Source: Candidatus Cloacimonadales bacterium (GTDB lineage Bacteria > Cloacimonadota > Cloacimonadia > Cloacimonadales > JAFGVF01). From it: DNA of 64,000 nucleotides. Below, in pieces: positions 52,752 to 62,168 of the stretch. Position 1 is the first letter of the stretch. Each line of letters begins with the position of its first letter. Location of the stretch: positions 832,001 through 896,000 of the forward strand of contig CAXXJV010000001.1 of NCBI GenBank assembly GCA_963663475.2, written 5' to 3'. The notes under the pieces were generated by a model. That model was not told where the DNA came from and ran no database searches. It saw nothing but the letters and a program-made list of their open reading frames with translations. The position numbers and the translations under genes were made by a program.

Positions 52752-52900
52752 ATATTTATACCTCAAACAAACCCTATTTTTTTGGGGGATTTTGTGTCAA
52801 TAGAAAAAAGTGGAAAGGGGGATTAGGACATTAGAGAAAGTCTTCAACAATCAAAATCCACTGGAAAAGTAATAATATTCAACTAATGTTAACCTCGTTT

Positions 52901-53095
52901 ATCTCAAATGGTGCAGTAGAACTTTGATACTACTTCGCTAAAGCTACTTATCACAGGTGAAGAGTGCAGATTATTCTTGCAAAATAACCTACAGAATTTT
53001 GACGCATATAATATATATATTCGGAGAAACTATGTAAGTTATTTTTGCAGAAGAATATAGTACTATTCGCAAAGGTCTACTGCATTATTTGAGTT
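52901..53095 (-). mobile_element. Family-B MITE-like element, long variant, inverted
   Basis: Reverse-complement match to 53423-53618, including the ~30-nt insert CACCTGTGATAAGTAGCTTTAGCGAAGTAG. Confidence 0.8.
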
Positions 53096-53223
53096 TATCT
53101 TCTACTCACTCTTATCAGGCAATATACACCTGTGAATAACTCAATTTTCCTCTTACAATATTAAGCCCCATTATTTTTAAGAATATATATTATTATAAGT
53201 AGACTAATTTATGATTTGTAGCT

Positions 53224-53309: not shown

Positions 53310-53422
53310 TAGGGATCTGAATAGGATTCTTATGATCAAGTTTATGTTTTGAAGAAAGATAAATGTATAAGATAAGGGCTAAGTTGATAAAGTAATTGCT
53401 AAAATATCAGTGATAGTGATTT

Positions 53423-53618
53423 AACCTAAATAACGCATTAGATCTTTGCGAATAGCAGAATCTTCTTTTGCAAGAGTAAGCTACATAATTTTCATGAATA
53501 TATATATTATATGCATTCAAACTCTGTAACTTATTTTGCTAAAAGAATCTAGCACTCTTCACCTGTGATAAGTAGCTTTAGCGAAGTAGTATCGAAGTTC
53601 AAATGCACTATTCTGGTT
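53423..53618 (+). mobile_element. Family-B MITE-like element, long variant
   Basis: AACCTAAATAACGCATTAGATC...TTCAAATGCACTATTCTGGTT. Confidence 0.8.
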
Positions 53619-53762
53619 TAAGAATCATCTTATCTAGCTACAAAATATATTATTAATGGTAAAATAACATTGATAACTTTATTTGATATAATTAATATGC
53701 TATTATTGATGTCTATTTTTTTTGAAATTATAAAAGGGTGTTTGCCAAATTTCACCAAAAGC

Positions 53763-54315: not shown

Positions 54316-54492
54316 AATTTGGGAAAAGTGTAGTTTTTTTTCAACACTTTGCCAAGAGAGAGCTGAAAATTTCTCACCAAGGAAGATTATATGAAGAGTG
54401 ACGGGAGTTGCTCACGGAGTAGCGACTTCCGACACTCTTCACCCGAAGTCCCTTGCCTACGGCTGAGGAAGTCTGGTCTCCAACAAAAAGTA

Positions 54493-54970
54493 GGCTCAAG
54501 TTCAAGTCTGGTGGTAAATAAGAGACTTTCATTATAGCATATTGCTTGAATAATAGAAAGTTACAAGTAAGAATATACTGTTAAGAGTATGTTTTGTTTG
54601 ATGATAAGTACTAAATCCTGAAAGGATAAGTCTTAAATCCTCAAAGGGGATAAATAGTTTAGCCTAGGGTAAATTCCTGAAGGGAATGCAACCCTGGGTA
54701 CTGGTGATGAAAAACAAAGCCTAACCCTGAAAGGGTTAAATAACATCATATATACCATAGACTTATACAATAATATATTATTTATCATTTTATTAAACCC
54801 TTACAGGGTAACATCTTTGGGCTAGCCATCATTACCCAGGGTTGCGATACTTTCAGCATCTTACCCTGGGCTAAATTATTTTATCCCTTTCAGGGATTTT
54901 TGATGAATTAATATAGTAATGAAATATTCTAATTTTCCTATATTATTCCCACCAGACTTGAACTTGAGCC
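54493..54970. mobile_element. 478-bp non-coding element with perfect 22-bp terminal inverted repeats and a nested REP-like stem (family D)
   Basis: GGCTCAAGTTCAAGTCTGGTGG (54493-54514) / CCACCAGACTTGAACTTGAGCC (54949-54970); inner inverted arrays span 54635-54899. Confidence 0.75.
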
Positions 54971-55048
54971 AAAAAAATTAAAAAACTATTATAAAATCTT
55001 GACTAATTTAAATTAGCTAGTAAAATTAAATTGTTATTTGTAAGTATT

Positions 55049-55416: not shown

Positions 55417-58400
55417 ATGCATAGCAAAGAATGGAATAGTGATATTTTGGTTAAATTAAAGGCAATAGCACTTCATTTTGATCCAGAACATTTAACAACT
55501 TATACCCTAGGTTTAGCAGTTTTAGCTTTAGAAGAAAGCCGAGAAATTTTAATTAACAAGTTAAAGATAGACCCCTTTTGTTTGAGACAAGTAGATTTAC
55601 CTGATTATGAGATTCCTGAGAATCTAGCAGATATTCCTTGGCCGACTATCCTATGCGAATCAAATAGTAACTGGTTTGATAGTGATGATGATAATGATAA
55701 GAATTCAAGTGAAGATGATGAAATTGATAAAGAAATTAAGAGAATGCTGGCAGAGTTACAAGAAGATGATGATGATAATTTTGATGATTCTGATGAATTA
55801 ACTTATGATGATGAACATGATCAATGGGTCTTTAATAGAGATGATGATAATGATGAAGAAATAGACCCAGAGGATGATGTTTTTAAGTTCATGGAGTTTG
55901 CAGATGAAGAAGCTGAAGAAAATGAAGAAGCTGAAGAAGATGAAGCAGAGGAAACAGATGAAACTGAGAAAGATAGCACAAAAGCTTATGGAATAAAAAG
56001 TGAAATTGATGATGAAGAGTTTAAAATAGATAATCCAAAAGACTTAGTGGATAAAATAGTTGATACCCTTCACGGTAATTTCTGGTATAAGAGAGAATAT
56101 TATGCCAATTCGAATGAAGTGATAATGACCTTAAATACAATTTTTGAGGAAGTTGAAACAGAATTTTCCTATTACAAAGAACAACTAGGACTTTTAAAGG
56201 AGTTAATCATTAACCAAATTTTAGATGGTCAATTTTCAGATAATCAGATAAATCCTTTGCCTATTGTGATTTGCTCTTTTGAAGCCAATAATATTAGCCC
56301 CATACTCAACTATATAGCCAAAAAGATGCATTATAAATTTAACTTCATAGAAGAAACCCTTTCGCTTTCAGACCATTTTAACTATAATACAATGTTTCCT
56401 TTCACAATGGATGTCATTCGTTTTAGCGATAAAAAGACTGATTTTACTGATGAGATTCATAAACTTTTAGATTATTATGAAACAGGTATTTTTCAGCATA
56501 GTTTTGAAGCTGATTCAAGTGAGGATTTCTTTAATTTTCTGTCAGATAGTTCAAAGAAAGAAACTGACGATAAGGAGTTTAATAAAGACTTCTTCTTCAG
56601 AAATCATTTAATTATATTCTTATTACAGATAGATTCGGATATTGATGTTGATTTTCACATGAGTAATGAAAAGATAAAAACTACTATTACCTCTTTTTAT
56701 AAAGATAGTTATCTCGCTGACCAGCATGAAGGCATTTATAATACTTATAATAAATATAAAGCCCTTTTTAAAGCTATTAAATCTGAGAAGTTAATCCTGT
56801 TTGATTATGGCGAAACTAGACTGATTCTAGCAAAAATCAAGGACTTTGTAGATTCATTGCTAGCTAGATACCCCGAAATCAAGCTAATCTTGGCTAGGGA
56901 TATTGAAAAAATCATTTTTTTCAATGTTCTCAAAGTAGGAGGATTTGATCTAAATTCTCTCAAGCTTGCTATATCGCACTCCATTTATAAGCTAAATCAA
57001 TTATTACTTTTCCATAATTCTCAAGATAAGATAAACCGAGTACGTTTTGATGTTAAAAATACTAAGATTAAAGATTTTATGCAGATGCTTCATAATAATA
57101 AAAGTAGCTATGAAATTATCCAGTATATAGAAGATAATTTCTTAAAACATAGTCAAAAGTTAACTTACAGTATTGATTATGACCAGACACAGAAGGAATT
57201 CATCTTTACAGATTTGAACTTAGAAACAATAATCAGAGAAGGTTCTAATCTTACCCAAAGACCTGAGGTGAGGTTTAAAGATGTCATAGGTTGTGAAGAA
57301 GTAAAAAAACGCTTCGCTAAAATAATTGACTATTACAAGGACAAATCATTTTTCCTAGAAAAGGGAATTAAAATGAGTAATAGAATTCTTCTCATAGGAC
57401 CTCCAGGCACTGGTAAGACTATGGTTGCTAAGGCCTTTGCAGGAGAAATAGGACTACCTTTTTATGCTATTTCAGCTGCTGAAGTTACTTCTCAACAATG
57501 GGCAGGCTGGGGGGCTAGTCTCCTAAGAAAGATCTTTTACAAAGCAAAAAAGAACAAGCCCTGTGTAGTCTTCCTTGATGAAATTGATGCCTTTGGTAAT
57601 CGAGGTCAGTTTAATGGTGATGATGGGGGAGTTGGTTATGATGCAAAGAGTATTATGAATACCTTACTTGTTCTGCTAGATGGAGTTGAAGATAATAATG
57701 ATGTAATTGTGATTGGGGCTACTAATAGACCAGAAGATTTAGATGATGCTTTGATTAGATCAAAAAGATTTGGATTAAAGTTTGAGATAAAAGCCTTAAC
57801 TTCTGCTCAGAGAATTCAACTTATAAAACTTCATCTAAAAGAAAAAAATGTCCAGGGAGATTATGAAAAGTTAGTTACTCACATTAAAGACAGAACTTAT
57901 GGAGAATTCTCTGCAGCTAAAATTGTTGAATTAATTGAAGAAACCCAAATCTATGCCCTAATTGATAAGAAAACTAAAGTTACTGCTAACCACTTTGACT
58001 ACATCATTGATAAGTTTATTTTAGGTGAAAAAATTTCTAATCTAAATCCTGATTATAAGAAAAATGTAGCTATTCATGAAGCAGGTCATGCAGTAATTCA
58101 CCAAATGCTTTTCCCAGAAAATTCTATCCAGAGTCTGTCTCTTGGCTTAAGAAAATCCTCTGTTGGGATAACTCTCTACAAGAAAGAGAATAGCGATAAT
58201 GGTTATGAAGAACTTAAAAATACCGAAATAATTAATCATATTGTCATAGCCCTAGCTGGAATGCAAGCTGAAAAGATTATGTTCGGACATTGGGATTTAG
58301 GCTCTAGTGATGACTTTGTTGTTGCCACCCATATGAGCCTTCAACTTGCCTGTAATTTAGACTTAGGAAAAGGAATCTCTCCTGTAATTGATTATAGTTT

Positions 58401-58653
58401 AATGGTCTTAGATTTGGGAGGTAAAGAAATATCCCCAGAAACTAAGGAAATATTGCATGAGTTAGTGGAGATTTGCTCCCAGAAAGCTGGTGAATTGCTT
58501 AGGGGAAATTGGGAATATGTGCTGAAATTGGCTGGAGAATTAGAGGAAAAAGAAGACTTGAATTGGGAGGATATTAGACCGCTTCTAGAGGGATTGAAGC
58601 CTTATAGAGGAGCTTTGGTTGATAAGCTTATGGGGGTTGAGGTGAAGGTGTAG
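55417..58653 (+). CDS. FtsH-like AAA+ ATPase / M41 peptidase lacking TM anchors, with long acidic N-terminal region
   Basis: Walker A GPPGTGKT, Walker B VFLDEID, ATNRPEDLDDALIRSKRF, HEAGH, LAGMQAE and GSSDD; AAGGAG RBS. Confidence 0.88.
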   Translation: MHSKEWNSDILVKLKAIALHFDPEHLTTYTLGLAVLALEESREILINKLKIDPFCLRQVDLPDYEIPENLADIPWPTILCESNSNWFDSDDDNDKNSSEDDEIDKEIKRMLAELQEDDDDNFDDSDELTYDDEHDQWVFNRDDDNDEEIDPEDDVFKFMEFADEEAEENEEAEEDEAEETDETEKDSTKAYGIKSEIDDEEFKIDNPKDLVDKIVDTLHGNFWYKREYYANSNEVIMTLNTIFEEVETEFSYYKEQLGLLKELIINQILDGQFSDNQINPLPIVICSFEANNISPILNYIAKKMHYKFNFIEETLSLSDHFNYNTMFPFTMDVIRFSDKKTDFTDEIHKLLDYYETGIFQHSFEADSSEDFFNFLSDSSKKETDDKEFNKDFFFRNHLIIFLLQIDSDIDVDFHMSNEKIKTTITSFYKDSYLADQHEGIYNTYNKYKALFKAIKSEKLILFDYGETRLILAKIKDFVDSLLARYPEIKLILARDIEKIIFFNVLKVGGFDLNSLKLAISHSIYKLNQLLLFHNSQDKINRVRFDVKNTKIKDFMQMLHNNKSSYEIIQYIEDNFLKHSQKLTYSIDYDQTQKEFIFTDLNLETIIREGSNLTQRPEVRFKDVIGCEEVKKRFAKIIDYYKDKSFFLEKGIKMSNRILLIGPPGTGKTMVAKAFAGEIGLPFYAISAAEVTSQQWAGWGASLLRKIFYKAKKNKPCVVFLDEIDAFGNRGQFNGDDGGVGYDAKSIMNTLLVLLDGVEDNNDVIVIGATNRPEDLDDALIRSKRFGLKFEIKALTSAQRIQLIKLHLKEKNVQGDYEKLVTHIKDRTYGEFSAAKIVELIEETQIYALIDKKTKVTANHFDYIIDKFILGEKISNLNPDYKKNVAIHEAGHAVIHQMLFPENSIQSLSLGLRKSSVGITLYKKENSDNGYEELKNTEIINHIVIALAGMQAEKIMFGHWDLGSSDDFVVATHMSLQLACNLDLGKGISPVIDYSLMVLDLGGKEISPETKEILHELVEICSQKAGELLRGNWEYVLKLAGELEEKEDLNWEDIRPLLEGLKPYRGALVDKLMGVEVKV

Positions 58654-59053: not shown

Positions 59054-59491
59054 TCAATAATCAGTATGATTACTAGGTATATCAGTATGACTTCTTCTAT
59101 TATGAGTATCTGTATGTTTAGATTTCTGTCCAAAATCCTTGTGTGAAGGTGACTTCACTCCACCATAATTGAAATCAGAATGATTAATCCAATCTCCTTG
59201 ATCAATGTGAGATGGTTTCTGGTGTTCTATTCCAAAATCAAAATCTGTATGATTGCCAATTGTAGTAGTATCAGTATGTGGCATTTTAATACCATAGTCT
59301 TTATGTTTCTGCCCATAATCTAAATGTTGTAACTCATAATTATTATGACTTCTATTATCATGCATATCGGATAAAATAATCTCTCGCTTTTGGATTGCTT
59401 CGTAACATTTTATCAAACGTTTGTTGGTAAAGGAAATTTTGTCATCAGATAGACAAAAATTAGCAATATACTTAAGTTTCTCTTTCATCAT
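59054..59491 (-). CDS. His-X-Asp repeat protein, putative RiPP precursor
   Basis: 43-aa His-free leader, then ten HxD motifs; the start overlaps the stop of the radical SAM gene (ATGA), with GAGGT upstream. Confidence 0.7.
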   Translation of the reverse strand: MMKEKLKYIANFCLSDDKISFTNKRLIKCYEAIQKREIILSDMHDNRSHNNYELQHLDYGQKHKDYGIKMPHTDTTTIGNHTDFDFGIEHQKPSHIDQGDWINHSDFNYGGVKSPSHKDFGQKSKHTDTHNRRSHTDIPSNHTDY

Positions 59492-60567
59492 AGTTTTACC
59501 TCTCTATAAATAACATTCGTGATTTTTTCAAAGATCATTTTATAAGACTCACAAAAAATATCTTTACTATCTAAATCATTATGACCTATTAGTGCGTTAT
59601 AAGGGCATCCAGAGTAACATATATTAAAATAGTCACATTGAAGGCATTTAGATTTCAAAAAACTTCTGTTCTTTAAAGCTTGTTTTGTTCTATGTTTAAA
59701 AATATCTTTAAGAGTTGAGGTGTTGATATTCCCTAGTTTATACTCTTCTAGATAATCGAACCTATTACAAGGATAAATATCTCCATTACTACTTATTGAA
59801 ATAAAATAATCTTGGCATGAAACTGAATGATTACAACTACAGGGCTCAAATCTTTTGTAGCTGAGAATATTTTCGATAAACTGTTCAAAAGTAATAATAG
59901 TATTCTCAATATTTTTATCATTATACCAAAGATCAAATAAATCTATCATAAACTGACCAAAATCTAAAGGAGATATTGCAAAATTTTTATTATTAGATAT
60001 CAGAGGATTAAATTTCCAGTTAATATTATTTTCCTTAAAAAAATCATAAATAGCACTAACATTCTGTGAACTTTTTTTAGATATTACTGCAATTGTACCA
60101 AATCTAATTTTTTCTTTTTGTAGCAATTTAATATTTGAAAAGACAGACGAAAAAGAACCCTTACCATTTTTATCTATTCTATAAAAATCATGAATTTCTT
60201 GTGGGCCATCTATACTTAGCCCTAAATTAATCTCATTATCCTTTATTAGGTCAACCCACTCCTTATTAATAAGAGTAGCATTAGTCTGTATGCAATTATG
60301 GTATTTATCATTAGGTAATATTCGTTTTTGATAATTAATTATTTTTTGGAAGTTATCAATACCTGTCAATAATGGTTCTGAACCATGCCATATGAAACTT
60401 ATTGTATTGCCTTCTTTAATTAATTTGTTGGCTTCTGTAAAGATTTTATTACATACAGAAAGACTAATTAACTCCTTTGATGAAATTGAACTATTGTCAT
60501 AGCAATACAAACAGTTCAAATTGCATTTGTTAATTGGCTTTATTATTATTTCATAGTGATTATTCAT
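59488..60567 (-). CDS. Radical SAM protein with SPASM domain (anSME-like / peptide maturase)
   Basis: CNLNCLYC, WHGSEP, QTNATL, SIDGP..HD..R; SPASM cysteines C...C...GDIYPC...CLQC-N5-CYSGC...C. Confidence 0.92.
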   Translation of the reverse strand: MNNHYEIIIKPINKCNLNCLYCYDNSSISSKELISLSVCNKIFTEANKLIKEGNTISFIWHGSEPLLTGIDNFQKIINYQKRILPNDKYHNCIQTNATLINKEWVDLIKDNEINLGLSIDGPQEIHDFYRIDKNGKGSFSSVFSNIKLLQKEKIRFGTIAVISKKSSQNVSAIYDFFKENNINWKFNPLISNNKNFAISPLDFGQFMIDLFDLWYNDKNIENTIITFEQFIENILSYKRFEPCSCNHSVSCQDYFISISSNGDIYPCNRFDYLEEYKLGNINTSTLKDIFKHRTKQALKNRSFLKSKCLQCDYFNICYSGCPYNALIGHNDLDSKDIFCESYKMIFEKITNVIYREVKL

Positions 60568-60719
60568 AATTAGTCCTTTATTAATTGAACTGATTTCATT
60601 GCCTATCTTTAGTTTTTACTATAAATTATGGGTATGAGAATAGCATTAAGTTGATTAAGGATAAATCATTAGTTAGATAATTCTAAGCTGAACAATTCAA
60701 TCTTATTAGTAATCAATTG

Positions 60720-61380
60720 CTTCACCTTGTTGTTGGCCATCAACGTAATTTACTAATTATCTGTAGTCCTATCTTCATTGTACAATATTTCTTCACCTTG
60801 TTGTTGGCCATCAACGTAATAGGTTTTAAGCATTATATTTCCATAAAGAGAATATGTTATTGTCTCACCTTGTCTTCTGCCATCAACGTAATTGGCTTTA
60901 GTCCGTATATTCCCATTTTTATAATACGATATTTCTTCACCTTGTTTTTTGCCATCAACGTAATTGGCTTTAGTCCGTATATTCCCATTTTTATAATACG
61001 ATATTTCTTCACCTTGTTGTTGGTCATCTACGAAATTGGCTTTAACTTTTATACTTCCATCTTCATGATAAAAAATTACTTCACCTTGTTGTTGGTCATC
61101 TACGAAATTGGCTTTAACTTTTATACTTCCATCTTCATTATAGAAGGATGCTTCACCTTGTTGTTGGCCATCTACGAAATGGGCTTTACTTTCTATAGTC
61201 CCATCTATACGAAACCATATTACTTCACCTTGTAGTTTACCATCTACGTAATTGGCTTTACCCTCTATATCTCCTCCTCCATTATACCATATATTTTCAC
61301 CTTGTTTTTTACCATCTACGTAATTGGCTTTGGTCCATTTACCTCTACACTCAGAAAACGTAATTTCTTCGCCATGCTTA
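60720..61380 (-). repeat. Tandem array of ~72-bp units encoding MORN-variant repeats
   Basis: Unit anchor CTTCACCTTG (or variant) at 60720, 60791, 60863, 60935, 61007, 61079, 61151, 61223, 61295 and 61367. Confidence 0.9.
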
Positions 61381-61865
61381 ACTCCATTTTTGAAATCATT
61401 TTCCACGATATAACACTCCGAATAACAATCTGATTGATCCCAGAGAGCAATAGTACCATTGAGAGGTAAATGAGAAATTTTGTAGTAAATCCTTGTAGTA
61501 TCATCTTCAACATCTAGTATATCTTCAAATTCTGAATATTGTTCACTATAAATGTCCTTTATATCTAAAGGTTCTACATCCTTGAATTCTGAATTTTGTT
61601 TGCTATACAATAATCCCCAAGTAAAATCTTCTTGCCATAAACTACTGGCTGTTATTATACCATTTTTAACATCTAACTCATACATTAGAATCTCATTATC
61701 ATCATAGTGCTGTATTGTCCCAGTAAAGGGTTTATTCTCGTCATTTTTAATAACAAAAATATCTTCTTTTTCATAATAAGCTATCTCATCTGAGCTTATT
61801 GTCTTTTCACAACTGGTAAGTAAAAATACAAGCAAAATTAATAAAATTATCTTAAAGATTTTCAT
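60753..61865 (-). CDS. MORN-variant (YwqK-like) repeat lipoprotein
   Basis: AGGAG RBS, lipobox LTSC, KPFTG, and 24-aa repeats GEEISYYKNGNIRTKANYVDGKKQ. Confidence 0.88.
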   Translation of the reverse strand: MKIFKIILLILLVFLLTSCEKTISSDEIAYYEKEDIFVIKNDENKPFTGTIQHYDDNEILMYELDVKNGIITASSLWQEDFTWGLLYSKQNSEFKDVEPLDIKDIYSEQYSEFEDILDVEDDTTRIYYKISHLPLNGTIALWDQSDCYSECYIVENDFKNGVKHGEEITFSECRGKWTKANYVDGKKQGENIWYNGGGDIEGKANYVDGKLQGEVIWFRIDGTIESKAHFVDGQQQGEASFYNEDGSIKVKANFVDDQQQGEVIFYHEDGSIKVKANFVDDQQQGEEISYYKNGNIRTKANYVDGKKQGEEISYYKNGNIRTKANYVDGRRQGETITYSLYGNIMLKTYYVDGQQQGEEILYNEDRTTDN

Positions 61866-61988
61866 AACATCTCCTTATTACGCATTATCAAAAACATCCA
61901 CATCATTGTTATTAAGTACAAGTAGCTTAGTAGAATTTTATAGAAACAATTGCACTTTTCTTAAAATTCTTCAGAAACATTTAGGTTA

Positions 61989-62153
61989 AACCCAAATAAT
62001 GCAGTAGACCTTTGTGAACAGCACTATATTCTTCTGCAAAAGTAACTTCCATAATTTCTCCGAATATATAAAATATATGCGTCAAAATTCTGTAAGCTAT
62101 TTTGCTAGAATAATCTGCACTCTTCACTAAAGCTCTACTACACTATCTGGGTT
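61989..62153 (+). mobile_element. Family-B MITE-like element, full length
   Basis: AACCCAAATAATGCAGTAGACC...GCTCTACTACACTATCTGGGTT; the centre is identical to 32545-32710 over about 50 nt. Confidence 0.82.
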
Positions 62154-62168
62154 AAAAATATTTGTATA

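Follow-up and report, generated by a model that had tools for sequence, protein, structure and literature searches.

What does a radical S-adenosylmethionine (rSAM) enzyme make when its gene runs directly into that of a peptide carrying ten His-x-Asp (HxD) motifs? This question is raised by a two-gene cassette in the genome of a Candidatus Cloacimonadales bacterium (assembly GCA_963663475.2), situated in a stretch of 64,000 nucleotides of contig CAXXJV010000001.1 (positions 832,001 to 896,000). This whole stretch is referred to as the window, and the coordinates given for it count from its first letter. We arrive at a probability of roughly 60% that the pair is a translationally coupled, horizontally acquired cassette of the type that makes peptides synthesised on ribosomes and then modified post-translationally (RiPPs), in which the enzyme closes three-residue rings of the triceptide kind from His to Asp. 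The following features, taken from the list of open reading frames (ORFs), the sequence and alignments, are needed for the argument:

60567..59488, minus strand: rSAM/SPASM maturase gene, 359 aa (ORF list; Pfam, NCBIfam and PDB matches)
59491..59054, minus strand: precursor gene, 145 aa plus stop (ORF list; without a Pfam or NCBIfam family)
59488-59491, minus strand: ATGA overlap of the rSAM stop with the precursor start (sequence)
59363..59491, minus strand: leader of the peptide, residues 1-43, free of His (sequence; residues 1-36 form the modelled interface)
59057..59362, minus strand: core of the peptide, residues 44-145, with ten HxD motifs from H56 to D144 and no Cys (sequence and shuffling)
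60502..60525, minus strand: CxxxCxxC rSAM cluster motif C15/C19/C22 (C19 and C22 invariant, C15 nearly so; alignments A1 and A2)
59551..59835, minus strand: SPASM region with eight auxiliary-cluster Cys, C245, C251, C267, C308, C311, C317, C321 and C339 (invariant or nearly so; A1 and A2)
59761..59766, minus strand: N268-R269, aligned with Asp277 and the next residue of anSMEcpe, an anaerobic sulfatase-maturating enzyme (anSME) (alignment with 4K36)

An earlier note on this DNA had described the rSAM stop as overlapping the precursor start, and this can be read directly from the sequence: the plus strand shows catcat at 59486-59491, ATGATG on the minus strand, where the precursor ATG (59491-59489) shares an ATGA with the rSAM TGA (59490-59488). 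The cassette is single-copy in the genome, in which the rSAM enzyme has one weak second match (E 1.4e-5) and no other. The same note's account of the peptide, a His-free leader of 43 residues before ten HxD motifs and an end in HTDY, is likewise borne out. Following the first His of the peptide, H44, the motifs start at H56, H63, H72, H81, H95, H104, H117, H126, H135 and H142, 7-14 residues apart. Their middle position (X2) is Thr five times, Lys twice, and Leu, Ile and Ser once each, and the residue directly after Asp is Tyr or Phe in six of the ten (three each), otherwise Thr (twice), Gln or Ile. Outside the motifs, His occurs at H44 (HDN), H49 (HNN), H90 (HQK) and H129 (HNR). The only Cys residues, C13 and C29, both belong to the leader.

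The number of motifs is far above chance. Across 200,000 shuffles, 1.5 HxD motifs are expected in the whole peptide and 1.8 in the core, compared with the 10 observed; the highest shuffled counts were 7 and 8, and 0/200,000 shuffles reached 10. Of all 20,075 stop-to-stop ORFs in the genome, the peptide ranks first by HxD density. The runner-up (contig C2, 12971-13150) was rejected as an off-frame WHSD reading of a tandem DNA repeat within a 680-aa gene. No DNA-level tandem repeat was found in the precursor gene, so the HxD motif is kept at the protein level only; as X2 varies in addition, His and Asp are what is conserved. This agrees with the proposal, made on first inspection, that selection acts on the tripeptide rather than on the spacers. 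Because the core contains no Cys, thioether chemistry is excluded, and we discarded a sactipeptide or ranthipeptide maturase for the lack of Cys donors in the core and for a PapB (NF047865) score of 131.1 against a cut-off of 340. Searches for relatives of the peptide by word index (among 5 candidates) and by phmmer over 1.84 billion representatives returned the peptide itself only, and the ESM Atlas gave no usable match to it.

The 359-aa protein matches Radical_SAM (62 bits) and SPASM (37.9 bits) in Pfam. Its C15/C19/C22 align with C15/C19/C22 of anSMEcpe, and C245, C251 and C267 with C255, C261 and C276 of the same enzyme (4K36). Since residue 7 already aligns with anSME residue 6, there is no N-terminal extension and no RiPP recognition element (RRE). 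Together with the eleven cluster cysteines, this upholds the initial description of an RRE-free rSAM enzyme with a CxxxCxxC motif and a full SPASM set. In NCBIfam, 66 families match the enzyme, none of them reaching its curated cut-off. These include the anSME, Hxs, GrrM, FxsB and Xye models for which a scan had been proposed:

anSME (TIGR03942): 279.5 bits, cut-off 349.45 (best NCBIfam match)
DynA (NF041298): 264 bits, cut-off 450 (second-best NCBIfam match)
YhhB (NF041707): 152.9 bits, cut-off 445
GrrM/OscB (TIGR04261): 146.2 bits, cut-off 310
AmcB (NF041718): 136.3 bits, cut-off 425
XyeB (TIGR04496): 118.1 bits, cut-off 450
FxsB (TIGR04269): 91.1 bits, cut-off 370
HxsB (TIGR03978): 81.9 bits, cut-off 370

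No YxdB model appears among the 25 of 66 NCBIfam matches listed. At gene level, the arrangement by which triceptide synthases, or enzymes forming three-residue cyclophanes (3-CyFEs), are recognised is present here: a SPASM rSAM gene without RRE adjoins a peptide with repeated aromatic-X-X motifs.

Is the enzyme then simply a sulfatase maturase with an unrelated HxD ORF beside it? Its best match in both NCBIfam and the PDB is an anSME, and its database relatives are automatically named 'anaerobic sulfatase maturase'. We nevertheless consider this reading extremely improbable, as even that best NCBIfam score remains under its cut-off and the expected substrate is missing. No PF00884 sulfatase was found in the host genome (99.24% complete, 2 contigs), with the same search being positive in 10/14 known genomes that served as a control. 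In the alignment with 4K36, moreover, Asn268 replaces Asp277 of anSMEcpe, which we take to be the proposed catalytic base, and Asp24 replaces Tyr24. Because the genome holds no sulfatase and these two residues are exchanged, the enzyme is not a sulfatase maturase. The translational coupling to the peptide and the docking of its leader in the model described below also speak against an anSME. Finally, we inspected 161 loci around relatives of the enzyme, 160 from species genomes and metagenomes and one from a relative's genome. An ORF with a sulfatase motif occurs at 3/161 of these loci only, and all three belong to another clade whose enzymes have Asp-His at the catalytic position; homologues clustering beside sulfatases, the observation that was to count against a peptide-modifying role, were not seen beyond these three loci.

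How could the enzyme recognise the peptide? A model of the complex was computed from the enzyme (with its own 72-row alignment), S-adenosylmethionine, three 4Fe-4S clusters and the peptide. Its interface score (ipSAE) was 0.85, 0.87 and 0.87 over the runs and 0.00 in all three controls; the mark for this score is reached by 58/80 solved complexes and 2/110 mismatched pairs, a calibration that is only rough here owing to the enzyme's own alignment and the ligands. Contacts agreed between runs by at least 28%, and the partner had a pLDDT of at least 41. Confident contacts are predicted for peptide residues 1-36 only, with enzyme residues 214-240, 312-316 and 346-359, and the core takes no confident position. 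The model is consistent with the His-free N-terminus serving as leader, as had been suggested beforehand.

Further evidence comes from the relatives of the enzyme. The closest homologue, P0003 (318 aa), shares 83% identity across 79% of the query, and the next relatives reach at most 40%. Its divergence sets in past a conserved Gly-Asn in the SPASM region, ahead of the last SPASM cysteines, which are missing, so P0003 is probably a broken or decaying copy in a related organism. One sequencing run (X5) contained a single 151-nt contig on the rSAM gene, and for P0003 there is no orthologue of the HxD peptide on record. Woesearchaeota, Aenigmatarchaeota, Pacearchaeota and Methanosarcinales account for most of the best-scoring relatives besides P0003 (34-39% identity), which are mostly DPANN archaea. 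In many of these relatives, one to three small ORFs directly adjoin the rSAM gene and share a common leader followed by a core dense in HTD, HSD, HKD, HRD, YxD and HxE. From 17 such ORFs we built a leader-only hidden Markov model (HMM), which recovers these 17 by construction and adds 12, giving 29 ORFs in 24/161 loci. This archaeal-type leader has a Gly, then a hydrophobic-Asp-Leu stretch and then an Asn about eight residues on (alignment A3). The 26 aligned archaeal-type precursors contain 87 HxD motifs against 19.6 expected and 159 aromatic-x-Asp motifs against 48.3 expected. Thr is the commonest X2 in them as in the window peptide, and Tyr, Trp or Phe replace His in related precursors.

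A count that does not depend on the leader gave a similar picture. ORFs with at least four [HYWF]xD motifs within 40 residues, a threshold picked after seeing the data, make up 33/531 of the adjacent small ORFs (at 30/161 loci) and 0/2,162 of the control ORFs farther off in the same loci. The expectation in the earlier note that homologues would co-occur with HxD-repeat ORFs is therefore met by HxD and other aromatic-x-Asp repeat ORFs at these 30 loci. Among the positives is a Bacteroidales clade (31-36% identity to the window enzyme) with ORFs rich in YxD and WxD upstream of the enzyme gene. For five archaeal enzymes and five precursors, no named NCBIfam family was reached; the archaeal HxD-linked enzymes score best on DynA (321-332 bits against the cut-off of 450), and a profile of the 26 precursors finds 7 proteins, none informatively named. 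Two of the 12 ORFs added by the leader HMM, one from an Anaerolineales metagenome-assembled genome and one from a metagenome contig (L042 3875-5413; L100 3983-5308), are enzymes with leader and aromatic-x-Asp core in frame at the rSAM C-terminus, and these would be natural fusions of enzyme and substrate, unless sequencing errors have produced them. A protein with borderline similarity to Peptidase_C39_2 (in L051, 24.5 bits where the cut-off is 24) is encoded after the archaeal-type precursors in 5/23 leader-type loci and is a candidate leader peptidase of the archaeal-type family:

L007 5526-6182, L019 5544-6263, L041 2777-4123, L051 5170-5892 and L098 1660-2298: Peptidase_C39_2-like protein (borderline Pfam)

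No C39-like peptidase is present at the window locus.

The enzymes beside such peptides also share a residue signature at the two positions following the third SPASM Cys:

Leader-type enzymes (23 rows): position 268 G in 21, T and N in one each; position 269 R in 23/23
Other aromatic-x-Asp-linked enzymes (16 rows): position 268 G in 13, D in two, N in one; position 269 R in 15/16
Window enzyme: position 268 N; position 269 R
Rows with a sulfatase-motif ORF at the locus (3 rows): position 268 D; position 269 H

Gly or Asn followed by Arg, as opposed to Asp-His, could thus serve as a marker parting peptide maturases from true sulfatase maturases, which are currently mixed by automatic annotation. 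Overall, these results show a recurrent pairing of this group's enzymes with aromatic-x-Asp repeat peptides, whichever origin the peptides have.

Several observations weigh against the triceptide reading or loosen its tie to the archaeal-type systems. Among solved structures, the enzyme's best sequence match is an anSME (4K36, 179 bits), well ahead of the solved triceptide synthase ChlB at 75.6 bits. Neither a dedicated peptidase nor an exporter was found with the cassette, in which it differs from most characterised triceptide clusters. Besides the late choice of the motif threshold, the rows counted for neighbouring ORFs and for the 268/269 signature are kin and not independent samples. In a search of 993 window ORFs with the archaeal-type leader HMM, the window peptide was not recovered at E <= 10, and hhalign gave a probability of 5.3% for the window peptide against the archaeal-type precursors; as no homology of the peptides is detectable, the shared HxD theme may be convergent just as it may be inherited. 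Whereas 23/24 leader-type rows form a single group with weak support (86), the window enzyme stands outside it on a long branch, attaching at a basal polytomy in a 148-row FastTree and with an SH-aLRT of 19 in a 62-row IQ-TREE. Lastly, the truncation of P0003 and the lack of an orthologous peptide suggest that the cassette is dispensable.

If the enzyme does form rings, how would it proceed? For the radical reaction itself, the bonded atoms and the ring count, we infer the following course. The enzyme would bind the His-free leader via its C-terminal helix and the 214-240 segment rather than via an RRE, and would then proceed along the core. At each HxD, the 5'-deoxyadenosyl radical would abstract a hydrogen from the Asp beta-carbon, and the resulting carbon radical would add to the imidazole of the motif's His, two residues upstream. 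The electron would pass to an auxiliary Fe-S cluster as the three-residue ring closes, at a loss of 2 Da, and up to ten rings could form per molecule. By analogy with the characterised His triceptide enzymes, His-C2 and Asp-C-beta are the atoms most likely to be joined; a dynobactin-type bond from His-N to C-beta is a possible alternative that is indistinguishable here.

The same pair of enzyme and substrate might also work without closing a ring, by oxidation of Asp C-beta, by epimerisation, or by an anSME-like dehydrogenation to a carbonyl or aminomalonate-type product on Asp or His. The closeness of the enzyme to anSME would fit such a course, as would the core without confident position in the complex model, and a 3-CyFE is reported to make formylglycine and aminomalonate as side products (Ma et al. 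2021, as cited in PMC12186529). We consider it unlikely, if still a serious contender. His and Asp are both fixed at i and i+2 while X2 varies, which argues for a partnership of two residues and not for modification of a single one; the replacement of His by Tyr, Trp or Phe in related precursors fits an aromatic acceptor, and the base position of anSME, Asp277, is Asn in this enzyme. A different objection concerns the state of the cassette and not its chemistry: it could be an inert or decaying passenger, acquired horizontally, which is unexpressed or has lost its activity and whose peptide has no present function in the host. Indeed, the cassette was not found in 6/6 congeners at protein and DNA level, the locus has a GC content of 0.265-0.287 against 0.33 genome-wide, high-copy short repeats surround it on its flanks, and the nearest homologue P0003 is truncated. 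Set against these signs are two intact reading frames, an intact ATGA coupling, the retention of all eleven cluster Cys and of all ten motifs without DNA repeats that could homogenise them, and a locus without any difference between the runs of two samples from a single study. On balance, a passenger appears rather improbable to us.

Absence from the congeners, low GC and repeats do fit horizontal acquisition of the cassette into a variable, repeat-rich region. Beyond the genus, it was not found in 53/54 further relatives (E <= 1e-20), the exception (G025) being a distant 31% match. Near the cassette, the LepA gene is the only DNA shared with other species of the genus, apart from the neighbouring AAA+/Peptidase_M41 gene, which one congener, and only that one, has without the cassette in another place (91% DNA identity). 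The surrounding features are:

55417-58653, plus strand: AAA+/Peptidase_M41 protein, 1078 aa (Pfam; convergent to the cassette)
60753-61865, minus strand: MORN_2-repeat lipoprotein-like protein, same strand as the rSAM gene and immediately upstream of it
61986-62156: ~172 bp repeat, between the MORN_2 lipoprotein gene and the next gene
54485-54977: ~490 bp repeat element, many copies in the own genome (87-99%), congener copies 73-86%
52898-53097 and 53419-53621: inverted pair of ~200 bp repeats just after LepA, multi-copy in the genus

The ~172 bp repeat has 56 matches in its own genome, on both contigs and mostly at 93-99% identity, occurs in congeners too, and has a contig word depth several hundred times that of its flanks. 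The ~490 bp element looks like a miniature inverted-repeat transposable element or an insertion sequence remnant.

Regarding the neighbours, the earlier note had stated that neither a sulfatase substrate nor a peptidase is adjacent. The first part stands, for the genome as a whole, but the second does not: the gene of the M41-domain protein is convergent to the cassette, and 400 bp separate its end at 58653 from the precursor stop. In this protein, the AAA+ ATPase and Peptidase_M41 (FtsH-like) form the C-terminal half, and the N-terminal part of ~600 residues has no family match and includes a long acidic stretch; in PADLOC, the AAA part is similar to IetA models. The PADLOC matches at the locus were dismissed as generic similarity only (AAA to IetA, rSAM to pVip). 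The MORN_2 lipoprotein gene contains internal DNA repeats at ~60840-61170, and a plus-strand ORF at 60717-61235 was rejected as its mirror-frame artefact. Proteases near the cassette carry type IX secretion sorting domains, a trait pointing to Bacteroidota. Scans of the locus found no excess of sigma-70 promoters (18 sites against 24.5 expected, in a scan that does not extend to Bacteroidota promoters) or of terminators (1 site against 1.3 expected).

If rings form, a His-Asp pair would join the known three-residue cyclophanes made by rSAM enzymes, and a long substrate with ten motifs served by a single small enzyme without RRE would be a handy system for studying processivity and leader recognition. 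The unusual features of this cassette, namely ten motifs, a long substrate that appears to stay uncleaved and a minimal cluster of two genes, make it a good lead for genome mining. Our survey additionally hints that peptides with HxD and aromatic-x-Asp repeats make up a sizeable family, as yet unannotated, in DPANN archaea and further uncultured lineages; a search for literature on rSAM RiPPs of Woesearchaeota returned none. One may speculate further, although the odds are clearly against it, that the cassette and its DPANN counterparts form a distinct His-to-Asp subclass whose enzymes are marked by loss of the anSME Asp and by the invariant Arg. Its product, unlike a small secreted peptide, would be an uncleaved polypeptide of ~100 residues with up to ten rigid rings, in which imidazole N and carboxylate stay free and could act as a multi-site intracellular metal chelator or buffer.

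How does the proposed system compare with known ones? The His-Xaa-Ser system likewise pairs an H-x-polar repeat peptide with SPASM rSAM genes, but it uses two of them (HxsB, HxsC) and has Ser as third residue, where the cassette has one rSAM enzyme and Asp. To our knowledge, Hxs chemistry is uncharacterised. With anSMEcpe (4K36), the window enzyme shares fold, length, three clusters and the absence of an RRE; it differs in having Asn for Asp277 and in a host genome in which no sulfatase substrate was found. Dynobactin, a secreted antibiotic of 10 residues, contains one Trp ring and one His ring, the latter joining His-N to Tyr-C-beta. DynA, the second-best model for the window enzyme, thus makes three-residue rings including one from His, but its substrate has no repeat array and no Asp partner. 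One C-C and one C-N crosslink are given for dynobactin in a review (PMC11002830).

Closer parallels are found among the triceptide synthases. On YxD motifs, YxdB links Tyr-C3 with Asp-C-beta (Sugiyama et al. 2022, as cited in PMC11002830), and OscB, according to the same review (PMC11002830), joins Trp-C7 to the C-beta of Asn or Asp. The YxdB type is likewise a SPASM rSAM enzyme beside an aromatic-x-Asp peptide with Asp as X3; its aromatic residue is Tyr, whereas all ten motifs here have His. His-C2 is linked to the C-beta of Ala, Arg and Lys by HaaB (HAA), YhhB (HNR) and HtkB (HTK), respectively (PMC11499958), and for MicB a ring on an HAS motif is reported as a His5-Ser7 cyclophane (PMC12912966). 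These four His triceptide synthases agree with the window enzyme in having His at position 1 of a three-residue ring motif and no RRE. Their precursors have 1-3 motifs, compared with ten in the 145-aa window peptide, their X3 is not Asp, and their clusters usually carry further genes for tailoring or processing, unlike the two-gene cassette. Because a charged active-site residue sets X3 specificity in HtkB and HaaB (PMC11499958), the invariant Arg269 is a possible parallel and may read the Asp carboxylate of the motif. In the literature searched (rSAM/SPASM enzymes, triceptides, His cyclophanes), no HxD class is described, though the 2022 triceptide landscape (3,940 precursors) and Fig. S1 of PMC11499958 may list some members. 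The earlier statement that no characterised HxD class is known accordingly holds for the His-Asp pair in this literature but not for the breadth of novelty that it implied, as each half of the pair has been characterised: rings of Tyr-Asp, Trp-Asp and His with Ala, Arg, Lys or Ser are already known, and it is the pairing of His with Asp alone that is new.

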